A DNA stretch of 27,719 bases from Burkholderiales bacterium. Lineage in GTDB: Bacteria; Pseudomonadota; Gammaproteobacteria; Burkholderiales; Usitatibacteraceae. Shown piece by piece: positions 3,780-9,711 of the stretch. The notes below the pieces were generated by a model. That model was not told the origin of the DNA. It worked only from the letters and a program-made list of their open reading frames with translations, and searched no databases. The DNA lies in contig JAJAYN010000459.1 in the NCBI GenBank assembly GCA_026786225.1, positions 1-27,719 of the forward strand, in the 5' to 3' direction. The stretch's first letter is position 1. Every line of letters starts with the position of its first letter. Position numbers and translations under genes: made by a program.

Positions 3780-4454
3780 GTGAGCATCTTGGCCGCGAAC
3801 GCTGTCAAGGCGGTATTGTTTGATCTGGACGGCACCTTTGCCGATACCGCGCCCGATATGGCGCGTGCCCTGAACGTCATCCGTCATCGCCACGGCCTCA
3901 CTGCCCTGCCTCTGTCTGCGGTCCGCCCGCATGTGTCGCACGGTGCGCGCGGCATGCTGGAGGTCGGCTTTGGCATCAACCCGCAACACGCAACTTTTGC
4001 TGCATTGCGCGATGCGTTCTACGACGAATATCAGGAAAATATATGCATTGAAAGCACGCTTTTCGCGGGCATCGATTCGCTCGTCAGTGCGCTGGAACAA
4101 CACGCAATCGCCTGGGGCATCGTCACCAACAAGGCTGCACGTTTTGCCTTGCCCATCGCTGAAGCGCTGGGTTTCGCACAACGCGCCGGGTGCATCGTCT
4201 GCGGCGACACGACACCACACACCAAGCCACACCCTGCGCCACTGCTGCATGCGGCGGACTTGATTGGCATTGCACCAGCTGACACGCTGTACGTAGGCGA
4301 CGATGCCCGCGACATTCAAGCGGCACATGCCGCGGGCATGCGCGGCGTCGTCGCCGAGTATGGTTACATCGGTGCGGATATCGATCCAAGCCTGTGGGGA
4401 GCGGCATTTTCGATCAACGCGCCGTTGGCGCTGAAGCCTCTGGTCTGCGGTTAA
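3780..4454 (+). CDS. gph: HAD-IA phosphatase (Gph/MupP-like, ubiG-linked); start GTG 3780 or nearby
   Basis: HAD motifs LFDLDGT, VTNK, KPHPAP and YVGDD. Position after ubiG is conserved; the Pseudomonas gene at this position is MupP, so the substrate is uncertain. Confidence 0.8.
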   Translation: MSILAANAVKAVLFDLDGTFADTAPDMARALNVIRHRHGLTALPLSAVRPHVSHGARGMLEVGFGINPQHATFAALRDAFYDEYQENICIESTLFAGIDSLVSALEQHAIAWGIVTNKAARFALPIAEALGFAQRAGCIVCGDTTPHTKPHPAPLLHAADLIGIAPADTLYVGDDARDIQAAHAAGMRGVVAEYGYIGADIDPSLWGAAFSINAPLALKPLVCG

Positions 4455-4539
4455 CCGCATTACCCAAGGGCCGCGCCGACACGGCTTGAAATTCAGGGCT
4501 TCACCCCGACATTGAGCGTAGAATCAACAAATCGAATTC

Positions 4540-4902
4540 GGGGCCGACCTGGTTTCGACGTGGGCTACAAAGCAGAACCGTGCATACCGAGGGGTGGTCA
4601 CCTCGTAAATACAACCGCAAACCAATAGTCGCAAACGACGAAAACTACGCTCTAGCTGCTTAAACCCAGCTGGACTCTGCACCGGTGGGCCTCAACGCCG
4701 GGTGTAGCAATACACAGCAGAGTCATTAACGAGGATCGCTTCATGTCGGGTCACTTGGCACGAAGTTAAATTTAGGTGGCTCGCTCCTCACCAGCCTGCC
4801 CGTTGGCGTGTGAGAGGTCAGAATCAAATACCGGGATCTAAGTATGTAGAGCGGCCTGTAGAGGGCTTGCGGACGCGGGTTCGATTCCCGCCGGCTCCAC
4901 CA
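4540..4902 (+). ncRNA. ssrA: tmRNA (transfer-messenger RNA)
   Basis: 5' end GGGGCCGACCTGGTTTCGAC; tag frame GCA AAC GAC GAA AAC TAC GCT CTA GCT GCT TAA (ANDENYALAA*) at 4631-4663; T-arm GCGGGTTCGATTCCCGC and a 3' end CTCCACCA. Confidence 0.98.
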
Positions 4903-4951
4903 ACAAGTAAAAACGCCATCCGGCTTCATCGGATGGCGTTTTTACTTGTTG
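4901..4951. terminator. Long perfect hairpin after ssrA, probable bidirectional terminator
   Basis: 22-bp perfect inverted repeat CAACAAGTAAAAACGCCATCCG (4901-4922) / CGGATGGCGTTTTTACTTGTTG (4930-4951), 7-nt loop, with T-runs on both strands. Confidence 0.8.
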
Positions 4952-5097
4952 ATTGCAGTTAGCGGGAACCGAATCCGCGTCCGGCACGGACGCGGGATGA
5001 GCCCGGACACAAAACAAGCCCTGCGGCTTGTTTTGTGCCTGCCGAATACGAGCGCCATGCAGGGCGCGAGGTGGCTTTTTCGGTGAAGCCGAAAAAG

Positions 5098-5118
5098 GAT
5101 TCCCGCCGGCTCGACCAA
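5098..5118 (+). repeat. Direct-repeat copy of the ssrA 3' end (att-like core)
   Basis: GATTCCCGCCGGCTCGACCAA matches ssrA 4883-4903 (GATTCCCGCCGGCTCCACCAA) at 20 of 21 positions and lies just upstream of an integrase remnant. Confidence 0.85.
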
Positions 5119-5229
5119 TAACACCCGCAACAGCGTTCAACGCGGTCCAAGTGACGGCATTTTTCTTTTGTTGTCAAGCTACTTAGCGTCCAGCGAGGTA
5201 TTGCAAAATCCGGCTACAGCCAATCATAC

Positions 5230-5293
5230 TGGGGGTATGGATTGGGGGCATGTCAAGAAATTGAACCGGAGAAAAAACATGGCTGGGGGTATG
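5230..5293 (+). repeat. Three TGGGGGYATG direct repeats, candidate integrase arm-type sites
   Basis: TGGGGGTATG at 5230-5239, TGGGGGCATG at 5243-5252 and TGGGGGTATG at 5284-5293 (the last overlaps the integrase ATG). Confidence 0.55.
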
Positions 5294-5960
5294 AAAAGCA
5301 AGCTCTCTGATAAAGCGGTCAAATCATTCACAGGCAAGGTTTGCCGGGGAAGAAGTTGGCGGACGGCGGCGGCATATAGCTGTTTATCTCTCCTGCACGG
5401 AGCGCGACCTGGCGCGTCAAGTATCGGATCGACAGTAAGGAGAAGACATATACGATTGGCCCTATCCCACCGTAACGCTCAGTGGAGCGCGTATCGAGTT
5501 GGTGGAAATTATGGCGTTGCTTCTGGAAGGCAAGGATCCCTTCACTGATCGCCGCGTTTCACGAGTCGCTTATTCAGCCAGCGCAGACCAAACGTTTCAA
5601 GTGGTTGCGCAGGAGTGGCTCGCGATGAAGCAAAAGGAATGGGGTGCAGTTCACTTTACCAAGTCCACGCATGCGCTTTAGTGGGATGTTTATCCACCTC
5701 TTGGAAAGCTACCGGTGTCGGACATCACCGCGACGATGGTCGCCAAAATGATCGAAGACATCCGCGATCGTGACGTACTTAAGACTGCCTAGCGAATATT
5801 GCAGCACGTAAACGGAGTCTTCTGTTATGCGCACGCCAAGGGACTCTGTCGCGACCATCCTGCAATATCAGCTCACGAGGTCCTGCCACGCAAGAAAAAC
5901 AGCAGCCGAATGCCCGCCCTGCTGGAATGGTCGGCACTGGGGAATGTGCAGCGCTCTGCA
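5291..5960 (+). pseudogene. P4-type tyrosine integrase pseudogene (arm-binding and core-binding domains only)
   Basis: Stitched translation: MKSKLSDKAVKSF / PGKKLADGGGI*LFISP...TWRVKYRIDSKEKTYTIG / YPTVTLSGAR...KDP...TFQVVAQEWL...AL*WDVYPPLGKLPVSDIT...TA*RILQHVNGVFCYA. It has two frameshifts, TAG stops at 5377, 5679 and 5790, and no catalytic C-terminal domain. Confidence 0.88.
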
Positions 5961-6002: not shown

Positions 6003-7007
6003 TCATCCTTCTTCAAGTCGGAAATATGCGATGACCTCCTTTGCCCGCTTGAGCCGAACAGCGAGTGCAGGCCCACCTGCCACCGCCACGCCCACTGCCA
6101 TCGTATCTATCATCACCAAGTGAACCATTCTTGAGATCATCGGCGCGTAAACATCCAAGTCCTCCGGCGCATCCACGAGTAGCGCGACGTTTGCAAGGTT
6201 TGCCAGTGGCGAGCCGCTCGCGGTGATCGCGATGACAGCCGCACCACCATCGCGCGCAATTTGCACACTTCGGATGAGTTCTCGCGTGCGGCCGGTTCCG
6301 GAGATGGCCACCACCACATCACCTTTCCCGAGCAAAGATGCCGACATGGCATGAACATGCGGGTCTGAATAAGCCGCTGTGGGAACACCGAGCCGAAAAA
6401 ACTTGTGCTGCGCATCCATCGCCACGATGCCGGAGTTACCTTGGCCGTAGAACTCGATCCGCCTTGCCGCAACAAGCAAGTGCGTCGCGCGCTGCAGCGC
6501 CTCAGGATCCAAATGGTTGCGTGCTGTGACGAGCGCGCTGATTCCACGGTCGAAAACTTTGGCCCCAATATCGGCCATCGAATCGAGCAGGCCCACATCC
6601 TGATGAACAAATGGAACGCCGTTCGCCAGGCTTTGCGCCAGCCGCAACTTGAAGTCGCGAAAGCCGCTGAAGCCGACAGCCGTGCAAAAACGCGCCACCG
6701 TAGGCTGACTGACGCCGGTGCGCGCGGCAATTTCAGGGAACGAAAGGCTGATGACGAGATTGGGATGTCGCAGGACAAACCGCGCAACCGATTGCTCGGA
6801 CGGACGTAGACTGTCCAGCAAGCTTTCGACACGGTCCAACAGCGTTGCCTTCCCTGTTTCCACAGGTGCAGAGACTGGCTTGTCGCGCTGCGCAGGGCGG
6901 CTGGCAGCAGCCACTTTCAATCGGCGGTCTTTGGGCGCACCAACCCCTTTCTCGACGGGCACGAGCGTCACTCGGGCGCTGGGGTTGAAGACATTTGCAT
7001 CCATCAT
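6003..7007 (-). CDS. hexR: HexR (RpiR-family) transcriptional regulator; the true start is probably internal (GTG 6863, ACG 6845 or TTG 6839)
   Basis: HTH region LRPSEQSVARFVL...GVSQPTVARFC..GFSGFRDFKLRLAQSL and SIS domain FYGQGNSGIVAMDAQHKFFRLG. Divergent from edd. Confidence 0.88.
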   Translation of the reverse strand: MMDANVFNPSARVTLVPVEKGVGAPKDRRLKVAAASRPAQRDKPVSAPVETGKATLLDRVESLLDSLRPSEQSVARFVLRHPNLVISLSFPEIAARTGVSQPTVARFCTAVGFSGFRDFKLRLAQSLANGVPFVHQDVGLLDSMADIGAKVFDRGISALVTARNHLDPEALQRATHLLVAARRIEFYGQGNSGIVAMDAQHKFFRLGVPTAAYSDPHVHAMSASLLGKGDVVVAISGTGRTRELIRSVQIARDGGAAVIAITASGSPLANLANVALLVDAPEDLDVYAPMISRMVHLVMIDTMAVGVAVAGGPALAVRLKRAKEVIAYFRLEEG

Positions 7008-7035
7008 TCTCGCTTCATCGCATGTAGTTTGTCAA
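7006..7035 (-). promoter_or_regulatory. Candidate sigma70 promoter for hexR
   Basis: Minus strand TTGACA (7035-7030), 18-bp spacer, GAGAAT (7011-7006). Perfect -35 with a weak -10. Confidence 0.45.
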
Positions 7036-7037
7036 CA
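7023..7037. promoter_or_regulatory. Degenerate HexR-type box overlapping the hexR -35
   Basis: TGTAGTTTGTCAACA is a 15-bp TGTA-N7-(T/A)ACA variant of the strong box at 7144. Confidence 0.4.
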
Positions 7038-7131
7038 AAACGCACATGGCGGTTCATCAAAATGACGCCTGCAATTGCTGTTAGTGCTATGAATGTTTGC
7101 TAATATTGTCCGCATTACTGCTAGCCCGGCA

Positions 7132-7160
7132 TTGACATAGTTCTGTAGATTTTCTACACT
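7132..7160 (+). promoter_or_regulatory. Sigma70 promoter of edd-eda
   Basis: TTGACA (7132-7137), 17-bp spacer, TACACT (7155-7160). An AAAGGA ribosome-binding site precedes ATG 7196. Confidence 0.75.
7144..7158. promoter_or_regulatory. HexR operator
   Basis: Palindrome TGTAGA-TTT-TCTACA matches the TGTA-N7-TACA shape of HexR boxes and overlaps the spacer and -10 of the edd promoter. Confidence 0.72.
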
Positions 7161-7195
7161 GTCACATCGTTTGTGCATATCCAAAAGGAACCGAT

Positions 7196-9070
7196 ATGGC
7201 GCTTCATCCAACCTTGGCGGAGATAACCCGCCGCGTGACATTGCGCAGCGAAGGCAGCCGCGCAGGCTATCTCAGGCGTGTAGAGCAGGCACGCGTTGCC
7301 GGCACATCACGTGGCCGCGTGTCCTGCACAAACCTCGCCCACGCGTTCGCCGCAGAGCCAGCCGCCAGTAAATTGGTTCTACGAGAAATTCGCGCACCCA
7401 ACATCGGCATCGTTTCTGCGTATAACGACATGCTGTCAGCGCATCAGCCTTTTGCCCGATTTCCCGAGCTCATCAAGCGTGCCGCACAGGAAGTCGGCGC
7501 GACGGCACAGTTTGCCGGTGGCGTCCCCGCCATGTGCGACGGCGTCACGCAGGGGCAGCCAGGGATGGAGCTCTCGCTGTTTTCGCGCGATGTCATTGCC
7601 ATGTCGACGGCCATCGCGCTTTCCCACGGTGTGTTCGACGCGGTACTGTGTCTTGGCGTCTGCGACAAAATCGTTCCCGGGCTATTGATCGGCGCCCTGC
7701 AGTTCGGTCACCTGCCTGCCGTCTTCGTGCCCGCCGGCCCGATGACAAGCGGCCTCTCCAACGACGACAAGGCCAGGATGCGCCAGCAGTTCGCGGAGGG
7801 CAAGCTGGATCGGGCGGCATTGCTCGAAGCGGAGAGCCGCGCTTATCACGGACCCGGTACGTGTACGTTCTACGGCACCGCCAACAGCAACCAATTCCTC
7901 ATGGAGGTCATGGGCCTGCATTTGCCCGGCGCAGCCTTTGTGACGCCCAACACGCCATTGCGCGACGCCCTGACATCTGCAGCAGCGCGACGCGTTGCAC
8001 AGATCACCCATTTAGGTGACCACTACACGCCGCTTGCCAAAGTATTGAATGAGCGCGCCATCATCAATGCCATTGTCGGTCTGCTGGCAACTGGCGGTTC
8101 GACCAACCACACCATTCACCTGGTCGCGATTGCACGAGCGGCCGGCATCATCATCAACTGGGACGACTTTGACGCGCTGTCTGCGGTTGTGCCGTTGCTC
8201 GCGCGGATCTATCCGAACGGCAGCGCGGATATCAATCATTTTCACGCGGCAGGAGGCGCAGGCTTCGTGATCCGCGAATTGCTATCGGCCGGACTGTTGC
8301 ACGACGATGTGCTCACCGTCACCGGCAAGTCGCTCAGTCACTTTACAGAGGAGCCCACGCTCAATGGTGAAATCGTCACCTGGAGGCCGGCGCCTGTATC
8401 AAGCGGAGACGACAGCGTTCTGCGCACGGCGGCAGCGCCGTTCAGTACCGACGGCGGCATGCGCGTGCTACGCGGCAATCTGGGTCGTTCGGTCATCAAG
8501 GTATCCGCGGTAAAGGCCGCGCATCGGGTGGTCGAGGCACCAGCGCTGGTGTTCGATGACCAGGACGACGTGCTGGCGAGTTTCAAGCGCGGCGAACTCC
8601 AACGCGATTTCGTGGCCGTGGTGCGATTTCAGGGGCCGAGGGCAAACGGCATGCCGGAGCTACATAAGCTCACCCCGGCGCTGGGCTCATTGCAAGATGC
8701 CGGCTTTCATGTGGCGCTCGTCACTGACGGCAGGATGTCCGGTGCGTCGGGCAAAGTGCCAGCAGCAATTCATGTTTCTCCAGAATGCCTCGCCGGTGGG
8801 CCATTGGGCAAGGTTCGCAATGGCGATATCATCCGCCTCGATGCCGATGCGGGCACACTCGAGGTCAAGGTATCGCCAGAAGAGTGGGCACAACGCGTGG
8901 TGTCAACTCCCGACCTTAGCCGGAATCAGTTTGGCATGGGCCGTGAATTGTTCCAGTCGGCGCGCGCCGCTGCGCTGACGGCGGAGGAAGGTGCGAGCAT
9001 ATTTGGCACGATTGACATACACCAATTCGAGAATTCTCCTGAATCCATACTGACCGGTACAACATCATGA
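7196..9070 (+). CDS. edd: 6-phosphogluconate dehydratase
   Basis: [21 protein letters not shown], Fe-S Cys motifs [15 protein letters not shown] and [38 protein letters not shown]. Confidence 0.96.
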
Positions 9071-9711
9071 CGACCATCCGTGAAATCATGTTCGCTAGCC
9101 CTATCATGCCGGTCATCGTTCTCGAACGCATCGACGATGCCGTGCCCTTGGCCGAGGCGCTGGTCAGCGGTGGCATCCGCGTGTTGGAAGTCACCATGCG
9201 CACGCCTGTGGCACTCGACTGCGTTCGCGCCATCCGTGCCGCCGTTCCCGACGCCATCGTCGGCGTGGGCACCATCACCAATATCGCGGACCTGAACGCC
9301 GCTCGCGCAGCAGGCGCCGCGTTTGGCGTGAGCCCCGGCACGACCGCAGAGTTGCTTGTACATGCCCATGGGTCCGGCTTTCCTTTTCTGCCTGGCGCGA
9401 TGACGCCATCAGACGTGATGCGCACGCTCGACGCCGGTTTCACCGCGATGAAACTGTTTCCGGCACGCCAGGCTGGCGGCATCGATATGCTCAAGGCACT
9501 CGGCGGCCCCTTTCCGCAAGTCCTGTTCTGTCCGACAGGCGGCATAGACGGTGAATCGGCTGCGACTTACCTCGCACTGCCGAACGTCGCGTGCGTCGGT
9601 GGCTCCTGGTTAGCGCCGGCCACGCTGATTGACAACCAGGACTGGGACGAAATAAGAAGCAGAGCGCATCAGGCGGCGTTACTTGCCAGACACCTCAACA
9701 AGCACAATTGA
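9067..9711 (+). CDS. eda: KDPG/KHG aldolase
   Basis: EVTMRTP, GVGT, VSPG, Schiff-base MKLFPA, FCPTGGI and VGGSWL. ATGA overlap with edd. Confidence 0.95.

Follow-up and report, generated by a model that had tools for sequence, protein, structure and literature searches.

The segment 4903-5117 of the window (the whole stretch of DNA that was analysed, 27,719 nt in length) is best explained, at a probability of roughly 0.6, as a cassette at the 3' end of the tmRNA gene ssrA that is bounded by a duplicate of the ssrA end, the interruption of this duplicate being a nested copy of a dispersed repeat. According to this reading, the ~215-bp non-coding cassette would provide the working terminator of ssrA, continue with an inverted ssrA end, a short hairpin and a direct ssrA end, and be bounded by the duplicated last 20 nt of the gene; the direct copy would have been broken at the T-stem/T-loop boundary by a REP/BIME-like repeat of 80 nt, scattered among genomes of the Burkholderiales, together with a 23-nt hairpin particular to ssrA. 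The interruption would then be a repeat nested in dispensable DNA and not a T-loop-specific event, and positions 5098-5117 would form the junction to a former P4-type island, of which a frameshifted integrase stump would be all that remains. Integrase-type insertions at tRNA and tmRNA genes are bounded by duplications of this kind.

The ssrA gene and its duplicated 3' end

The features of the region are listed below, with the source of each assignment in brackets.

4540-4902, plus strand: ssrA (tmRNA gene), encoding the tag ANDENYALAA (ARAGORN; Rfam RF00023, 220.7 bits; RNA contigs)
4901-4951, no strand: terminator palindrome with perfect 22-bp arms and a 7-nt loop (inverted repeat 4901-4922/4930-4951)
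4952-4983, minus strand: inverted copy of the ssrA 3' end (inverted-repeat search; BLAST self-hit, 81% over 81 nt)
4975-4995, no strand: perfect 9-bp hairpin with the loop GCA (arms 4975-4983/4987-4995)
4987-4996, plus strand: left flank of the split ssrA end, a direct copy of 4870-4879 (direct repeat search)
4995-5074, plus strand: one copy of an 80-nt, two-hairpin dispersed repeat (homologues, alignment, covariation, flank logo)
5075-5097, no strand: 23-nt hairpin with a 9-bp stem (inverted repeat; relatives)
5098-5121, plus strand: direct copy of the last 20 nt of ssrA and 4 further nt, candidate att-type duplicate bounding the cassette
5229-5239 and 5283-5293, plus strand: two exact 11-nt direct repeats, CTGGGGGTATG (direct repeat search)
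5279-5790, plus strand: decayed P4-type integrase (collinear sub-threshold Pfam pieces, frames, tblastn)

According to both ARAGORN and Rfam, ssrA is intact despite the duplication; the copied part of the gene is its 3' end (4870-4902). The initial annotation had described a second ssrA end that is split at the T-loop, and in the repeat search all of its coordinates hold to the base. The sequence CGGACGCGGG, which comprises the 5' half of the T-stem and the five nucleotides before it, is present as a direct repeat at 4870-4879 and 4987-4996, and the last 20 nt of the gene (4883-4902) are found again at 5098-5117 with 19 of 20 positions identical (the single mismatch is a C-to-G change), the match extending to 5121 at 22/24. 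The gap between the two pieces (4997-5097, 101 nt) stands in place of TTC. With up to three mismatches allowed, the 20-mer occurred at these two places only in the window, and in 0 of 100 shuffles. The hairpins claimed for the insert were recovered as well by the inverted-repeat search (a perfect 13-bp hairpin at 5008-5020/5025-5037 and a perfect 9-bp hairpin at 5075-5083/5089-5097), and the claimed GCGCC/GGCGC stem was placed at 5052-5056/5063-5067. An independent public DNA contig covers 4874-5247 with one mismatch; the arrangement is thus not a misassembly of this bin. A search of the window and of the 3.4-Mb assembly revealed no third copy of the ssrA end that would mark the far end of an island, and a near match in the closest relative (G010) was rejected as such a far end, since it sits within a coding repeat. 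A permuted tmRNA was likewise rejected: Rfam tmRNA_permuted reached 26-39 bits on the relatives, the cut-off being 47, and these matches below the cut-off consisted of the ssrA end, terminator and inverted copy (L174, L176) or lay inside ssrA. The promoter scan of 4400-5400 returned nothing, ssrA's own promoter included, and is thus of no informative value.

Three elements had been missed in the initial annotation, namely the terminator palindrome, the inverted T-arm copy and the hairpin at 4975-4995. The palindrome has the shape of a two-way terminator and forms the centre of a longer palindrome (4870-4983) that is composed of the ssrA end and its inverted copy; its arms differ between relatives, each pair of arms being complementary or nearly so. 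Within the inverted copy, complementarity to 4870-4891 amounts to 91% for the T-arm part (4962-4983), and the acceptor part (4952-4961) is diverged; the copy is also found in relatives, where its decay varies. Through the 9-bp hairpin with the GCA loop, the inverted copy is connected at its end with the direct piece (CGGACGCGG; left flank, GGACGCGGG). The DNA fold of 4868-5121 (-90 kcal/mol, z -12.8) is dominated by the long hairpin of ssrA end, terminator and inverted copy, and in the RNA-parameter fold of 4951-5121 (z -6.1) the inverted copy pairs with the direct copy and closes four hairpins.

The 80-nt dispersed repeat

The first 80 nt of the insert (4995-5074) are a copy of a dispersed repeat; the remaining 23 nt (5075-5097) lie outside it. 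The repeat consists, in this order, of GGATGAG, stem 1 with the loop CTGC, CGAAT.CGAG, stem 2 and GCGAGGTGG, the window copy carrying an A in the 10-mer where the family has a C. Two further copies of 4995-5074 were detected in the same genome by BLAST, one on contig C176 and one on contig C99 beside tRNA-Ala(CGC); a third, within a 5' fragment upstream of tRNA-Ala(CGC) on C99, was found by reading and then by motif search. Among the 40 relatives sampled, matches were present in 16 of the 24 genomes of the genus (up to 16 per genome, tandem copies included) and in none of the 16 other families; the sole signal from the latter was a weak match of 24 nt that fell on the portion of the query derived from the ssrA end. 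By means of a pattern for the 3' half of the repeat, at least 120 stretches of public genomes were identified, including Castellaniella (33 and 46 repeat matches in two genomes), Pusillimonas, Candidimonas, Pollutimonas, Alcaligenes, Bordetella, Thiomonas, Pigmentiphaga, Usitatibacteraceae MAGs and Betaproteobacteria bacterium UKL13-2; one copy of the latter (L044) shares its gene context with a copy in G017 (L015). The DNA data sets that contain the window best are glacier metagenomes, and the shared gene context and the matches in Usitatibacteraceae MAGs, taken together, would point to a Usitatibacteraceae-like betaproteobacterium as the source.

A gap-free alignment over 80 columns was obtained for 92 distinct copies. 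The two hairpins, the first being long with the CTGC loop and both being closed by tandem G-A pairs, covary strongly: 94.5% of the cells are paired (76% when shuffled, 28-41% when slid), the stems contain 403 two-sided changes, and the observed score was reached by 0 of 500 shuffles. G-U pairs outnumber A-C mismatches (38 versus 17), which identifies the plus strand as the folding strand. The blocks GGATGAG, CGAATCCGAG and GCGAGGTGG are invariant in the alignment; their invariance is overstated, since they were partly fixed by the search pattern, while the variable stems were unconstrained by the search. The initial proposal of a non-autonomous mini-element stands as regards a small repeat with homologues elsewhere and covarying stems, but not as regards its location in T-loops; homologues in other T-loops, with covarying stems, had been envisaged, and both homologues and covariation exist, but the homologues are not in T-loops.

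Many of the copies are located at gene ends. For the 110 copies of loci L003-L148, the TGA contained in the leading GGATGAG ends an open frame of at least 80 codons in 56, and it serves as the stop in 50 of the 79 copies with a long frame that ends between -60 and +20 nt of the repeat start; where it is the stop codon of the host gene, the protein ends in Gly. The idea of T-loop targeting was not supported: about half of the full copies (56/110) abut the end of a reading frame, and the few in tRNA-like DNA occupy differing positions. The flank logo displays G or T at -1, mostly G at -2 and A or G at +1, and no duplicated flank around the copies. Terminal inverted repeats are absent, the ends GGATGAG and GAGGTGG not being inverted repeats of each other. 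A hairpin just upstream of the repeat was found for 15 of 106 copies (2.4 in controls); it characterizes a subset and was dismissed as a general insertion rule. A second small palindromic family (GAATTCG and then a long hairpin, enclosed by the outer stem TTTTTC..GAAAAA) was observed in L152, L163 and L015; it nests beside the 80-nt repeat in ssrA cassettes and is also located behind genes.

Comparison of the repeat with named families

The 80-nt repeat has no match in Rfam 15 and no description in the literature searched, and over 4903-5260 Rfam gave nothing better than E 0.2. We know of no enzyme that moves it. The expected identity was BRE, the Beta-proteobacterial repeat element of Bordetella (Hot et al. 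2011, PMC3110155), which it resembles in the bacterial groups concerned, size, variable-number tandem arrays and an overlap with gene ends by a few bases; however, the two differ in sequence, the supplement sequences of BRE sharing none of the three invariant blocks, and this identity was therefore rejected. Insertion of the repeat into a BRE-like element, behind CCCCCTTGGGG, was observed in loci of Alcaligenes and Pollutimonas and in a MAG that is labelled Rhodobacterales (see L091, L049 and L034); the two families thus form mosaics.

With REP/BIME, ERIC, Correia/NEMIS, RUP and BOX the repeat has in common the length of ~80 nt, the hairpins and the tens of copies per genome, as well as the position mostly just behind genes in the same orientation, the tandem and partial copies and the nesting with other repeats. 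Unlike these, it is devoid of a GTAG-type head, of terminal inverted repeats and of an evident target duplication, and its own TGA stops about half of the host genes. An assignment to REP/REPIN was not retained, as the GTAG-type head is missing and the copies are tandem and direct, not inverted pairs; nor was a link to RAYT, since no Y1 transposase (PF01797) was found in the two Castellaniella genomes with 33 and 46 matches. MITEs were discarded owing to the missing terminal inverted repeats and target-site duplication. A hammerhead ribozyme, of which the motif GAUGAG...CGAA is suggestive, was rejected: GG or UG takes the place of the essential CU that precedes GA, and Rfam gave no match. A group I or tRNA intron was rejected as well, the insert being too small and most copies of the repeat being located outside tRNA genes.

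The ssrA cassette in relatives

The cassette is present in 17 of the 21 readable ssrA loci of the genus. Twelve of the 21 have the design of the window, some with a variant first stem or with extra nested palindromic repeats, the latter being situated between the left flank of the 4987-4996 type and the 23-nt hairpin; the left flank is conserved among the class-1 relatives. Five of the 21 have the same design with an unrelated insert of ~125 nt between CGGGTTCGA and ATTCCCGCC, which contains three hairpins that covary between L161 and L174. The 23-nt hairpin was seen in ssrA cassettes only and is absent from the dispersed copies of the repeat; its stem covaries between relatives. In the window, GAGGTGG is followed by C, as opposed to A or G in all of 109 other repeat copies.

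Cassette-free loci consist of ssrA followed by a plain terminator and flank (L162, L164; the truncated L156 starts alike), and in G010 an integrase fragment directly follows ssrA, no cassette having been found in the G010 assembly. Cassette-free genomes could also be the result of deletion between the direct repeats, which gives the same picture as empty sites, and the "native flank" could itself be an island arm. The units occur in tandem, with two in L166 and three in L176 (79-95% alike), and in L011, L014, L166 and L188 the direct copy is followed by a second terminator and a second inverted copy. The post-ssrA flank of L162, which is directly behind the gene in L156 too, reappears behind the cassette and the decayed duplicate in G035, a genome of another family (L181; 85% over 66 nt, E 6e-16); one and the same flank can thus adjoin the gene in some genomes and the duplicate in another, which is what att-type duplicates would lead one to expect. 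Excision or circle joints were not detected in the assembled contigs of public runs. A direct copy with contiguous halves was not found in the relatives examined; that the repeat arrived after the direct copy had been made is therefore what we infer, not what was seen.

The integrase stump and the downstream DNA

The integrase stump reads as arm-binding and central domains in shifting frames with in-frame stops. Its Pfam pieces, each below the cut-off, correspond to positions 27-52 and 51-81 of Arm-DNA-bind_3 and to positions 1-25 and 31-65 of Phage_int_M, and tblastn yielded a weak match with the integrase fragment of G010 (E 1.7e-4). Within 5279-5790, there was no match to a whole integrase domain, and the catalytic domain is missing. 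The stump belongs to the DNA beyond the duplicate and not to the cassette. The initial suggestion of a decoy att site was borne out insofar as the downstream ssrA end behaves as an att-type duplicate, with the integrase stump adjoining and the flank shared between L162 and G035. The two CTGGGGGTATG repeats, 54 nt apart and situated around the start of the stump, may be arm-type integrase binding sites.

In L150, the corresponding locus of G010 (99% identical in the part of ssrA compared), the start of a P4-type integrase follows ssrA and meets a stop after 52 codons. Behind the stump of the window, a gene for an RpiR-type regulator starts at 6003 on the minus strand; the region 6003-9711 onwards comprises this regulator, Edd (6-phosphogluconate dehydratase family), KDPG aldolase and then sugar-acid uptake genes.

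A corresponding cassette at tRNA-Ala(CGC)

Cassettes are located at 2 of the 27 tRNA/tmRNA genes of this genome, ssrA and tRNA-Ala(CGC). The latter cassette is composed of a terminator palindrome, an inverted tRNA end of ~30 nt, ACAG, a variant of the repeat, a direct copy of 28 nt and a second terminator; besides this genome, another member of the genus, a second genus and a Usitatibacteraceae MAG have it, and cassette-free sites exist in the second genus. At both targets, the inverted copy matches its own target. The repeat of the tRNA-Ala(CGC) cassette sits before an intact T-arm copy and not in a T-loop. Three of the four repeat copies of this genome are positioned in tRNA-like DNA: the ssrA copy, the copy 5' of the tRNA-Ala T-arm copy and that in the D-loop of the tRNA-Ala 5' fragment. 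Among the 17 tRNA/tmRNA genes in L010-L148, a disrupted copy adjoins only the tRNA-Ala(CGC) of L074.

The D-loop arrangement (L004 on C99, 318-412, minus strand; L074, 5038-5145) is made up of the first 20 nt of tRNA-Ala(CGC), the repeat in the D-loop and ~9 tRNA bases; it is located upstream of the intact tRNA-Ala(CGC) and is also present in the Usitatibacteraceae MAG, i.e. in two genera. Such a promoter-proximal fragment would place the repeat in the leader transcript of the tRNA. This genus and another one have tRNA-Ala(CGC) genes that are 100% identical, against 88-95% identity in the remaining genera of the family (L185-L189 versus L190-L207), and within the own genus the gene was found in 2 of 10 sampled genomes only; horizontal transfer of the gene together with the cassette would fit this patchy pattern.

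Transcription

In two ice metatranscriptomes, RNA contigs cover the tmRNA at depths of 10^3-10^5, end at ~4902 and drop to zero after ~4930; no RNA contig in either data set lies over 4931-5004 or beyond 5078. A few low-depth RNA contigs map to 5006-5074 with 4-5 mismatches, and one of them joins two copies of the repeat; based on these mismatches and this joint, they originate from other loci. As the RNA data are assembler contigs from mixed communities, the argument that they furnish against a gene is weak. The initial annotation had considered a structured RNA that mimics tmRNA, and the segment 4951-5117 might accordingly be read as a structured RNA with a tRNA-like end, i.e. a tmRNA mimic or a decoy substrate. 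Its predicted fold, which is closed by the pairing of inverted and direct copy around four hairpins, and the folding of the plus strand in the repeat family (G-U versus A-C, 38 to 17) agree with such an RNA; however, the segment is placed behind a strong terminator, ARAGORN (which reports ssrA as the one tRNA/tmRNA-type gene) and Rfam find nothing there, the RNA contigs that cover the tmRNA stop short of it, this copy shows poor acceptor-like pairing, and the closing helices are subject to decay among relatives. We thus consider this interpretation highly improbable.

Origin of the cassette

The bounding duplicate, the presence and absence of the cassette, its tandem units and the adjoining stump fit the known traffic at tmRNA genes, and the duplication would accordingly have been made by site-specific recombination. 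One feature is a misfit to the cassette reading that we prefer: the inverted copy, target-matched at two genes, for which simple decay is no explanation. To our knowledge, ordinary integrase att sites contain no inverted copy of the target, and the island arms that adjoin ssrA in G010 and that follow 5118 in the window are likewise devoid of one. The inverted copy would be explicable either by a folded single-strand att site or by a miniature tandem inversion duplication. In the case of the folded site, the cassette would integrate as single-stranded DNA whose inverted and direct copies anneal so as to mimic the duplex gene end, with the repeat as a variable tip, and a tyrosine recombinase would exchange one strand with the gene end, an exchange for which CTX-phage attP(+) with XerCD and integron attC with IntI are precedents. 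The downstream end has the layout to be expected under this assumption (gene end, cargo consisting of the terminator only, inverted site, spacer, direct hybrid site, flank), the two copies, inverted and direct, differ according to the target (ssrA or tRNA-Ala), the units are arrayed in tandem as integron cassettes are, the T-arm is retained in the inverted copy whereas the acceptor 3' strand is systematically diverged, which would give rise to a central bubble, and the RNA-parameter fold (z -6.1, four hairpins) pairs the two copies. However, the cassettes have no linked recombinase, compensating changes are missing where the inverted copy has decayed in relatives, the repeat of the ssrA cassettes is a side branch of one arm and not the tip, two targets only are known (2 of the 27 tRNA/tmRNA genes in this genome, and none of 17 tRNA genes in the vicinity of other repeat copies), and tandem units and empty sites are also explicable by ordinary homologous recombination; the folded site hence appears unlikely. 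The wider version, in which gene-less units of ~200 bp at ssrA and tRNA-Ala(CGC) would integrate via folded single-strand att sites and the repeat would spread by a related mechanism, seems distinctly unlikely. No recombinase would be involved if the arrangement were a replication error: the nascent strand would snap back at the terminator palindrome and copy the ssrA end backwards, and after a second switch at the short palindrome copying would go forward, resulting in a miniature tandem inversion duplication in whose third copy small repeats settled later. Inverted triplications by template switching at inverted repeats are established (for example PMC4689423), the order in the window is exactly direct, inverted, direct, and the two junctions coincide with the loop of the 22-bp palindrome and with the 9-bp hairpin with its 3-nt loop. 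The second terminator and inverted copy after the direct copy (L011, L014, L166, L188) and the species-specific terminator arms, whose pairs are complementary or nearly so as if one arm had been the template of the other, are in line with this process as well. It would nevertheless require a rare accident that became fixed at two genes and was kept in several genera and in at least two families, and it leaves unexplained why the same repeat family is placed between the inverted and direct copies at both genes; we regard it as an unlikely account.

A further alternative concerns the repeat itself, which might be a mobile mini-element with a preference for loops in tRNA-like DNA, be it the T-loop or the D-loop. 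Such DNA harbours three of this genome's four copies, the D-loop insertion recurs in the Usitatibacteraceae MAG, and the flank of G or T at -1 and mostly G at -2 is that found after G19 of the D-loop or G53 of the T-stem. Against this preference, more than 100 copies are located elsewhere (56 of 110 at the end of a reading frame, some inside BRE), the tRNA-Ala cases are inherited and not independent events, the repeat of the tRNA-Ala cassette precedes an intact T-arm copy outside its loop, and among the 17 tRNA/tmRNA genes of L010-L148 the tRNA-Ala(CGC) of L074 is the sole tRNA gene with a disrupted copy; a loop preference is thus decidedly improbable. Since the repeat follows immediately upon the hairpin at 4975-4995, other repeats nest at the same place and the T-arm of the tRNA-Ala copy is intact, the settling of a dispersed repeat in the cassette is preferred over a targeting of T-loops.

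Relation to known systems and significance

Tyrosine-integrase islands at tmRNA genes are reportedly treated by Williams in "Traffic at the tmRNA gene" (J Bacteriol 2003). Such islands leave displaced 3' fragments and tandem arrays at tRNA and tmRNA genes (Islander/TIGER resource, PMC4383910; ssrA islands of Dehalococcoides, PMC3146451). In common with integrase islands at tRNA and tmRNA genes, the cassette has a direct repeat of ~20 nt of the ssrA end, a terminator supplied by the element, a stretch after the repeat copy that reads as a decayed integrase gene, arrays of units and a flank behind the repeat that varies between genomes; in contrast to them, it is only ~200 bp long and gene-less, and it holds an inverted copy of the target and an interrupted direct copy. 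The likeness to integron attC and CTX-phage attP(+) is one of layout only: at its downstream end, each unit has a variable structured spacer between inverted copies of a site, the units are in tandem and a central stretch is mismatched, whereas no link to IntI or Xer was found and the target is the end of a tRNA or tmRNA gene. Tandem inversion duplications and inverted triplications by template switching at palindromes share with the cassette the order direct-inverted-direct and the position of both junctions at palindromes; they differ in that the cassette involves tens of bases and not kilobases and recurs at two genes in several genera.

As regards annotation, the second ssrA end should be treated as an att-type duplicate within a nest of repeats, and neither as a gene nor as a T-loop intron. 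At two RNA genes, the gene-less cassettes with inverted and direct copies that match the respective target differ from standard integrase sites and point to a recurrent replication error at the terminators of RNA genes or to an undescribed mode of integration; the folded-site reading, if true, would represent a recombination of the integron attC and CTX attP(+) kind that is aimed at the ends of tRNA and tmRNA genes. The 80-nt repeat covaries strongly and is frequent in Castellaniella, other Alcaligenaceae, Thiomonas and Usitatibacteraceae; it could influence how stable mRNA 3' ends are, or how translation terminates, at dozens of genes per genome.
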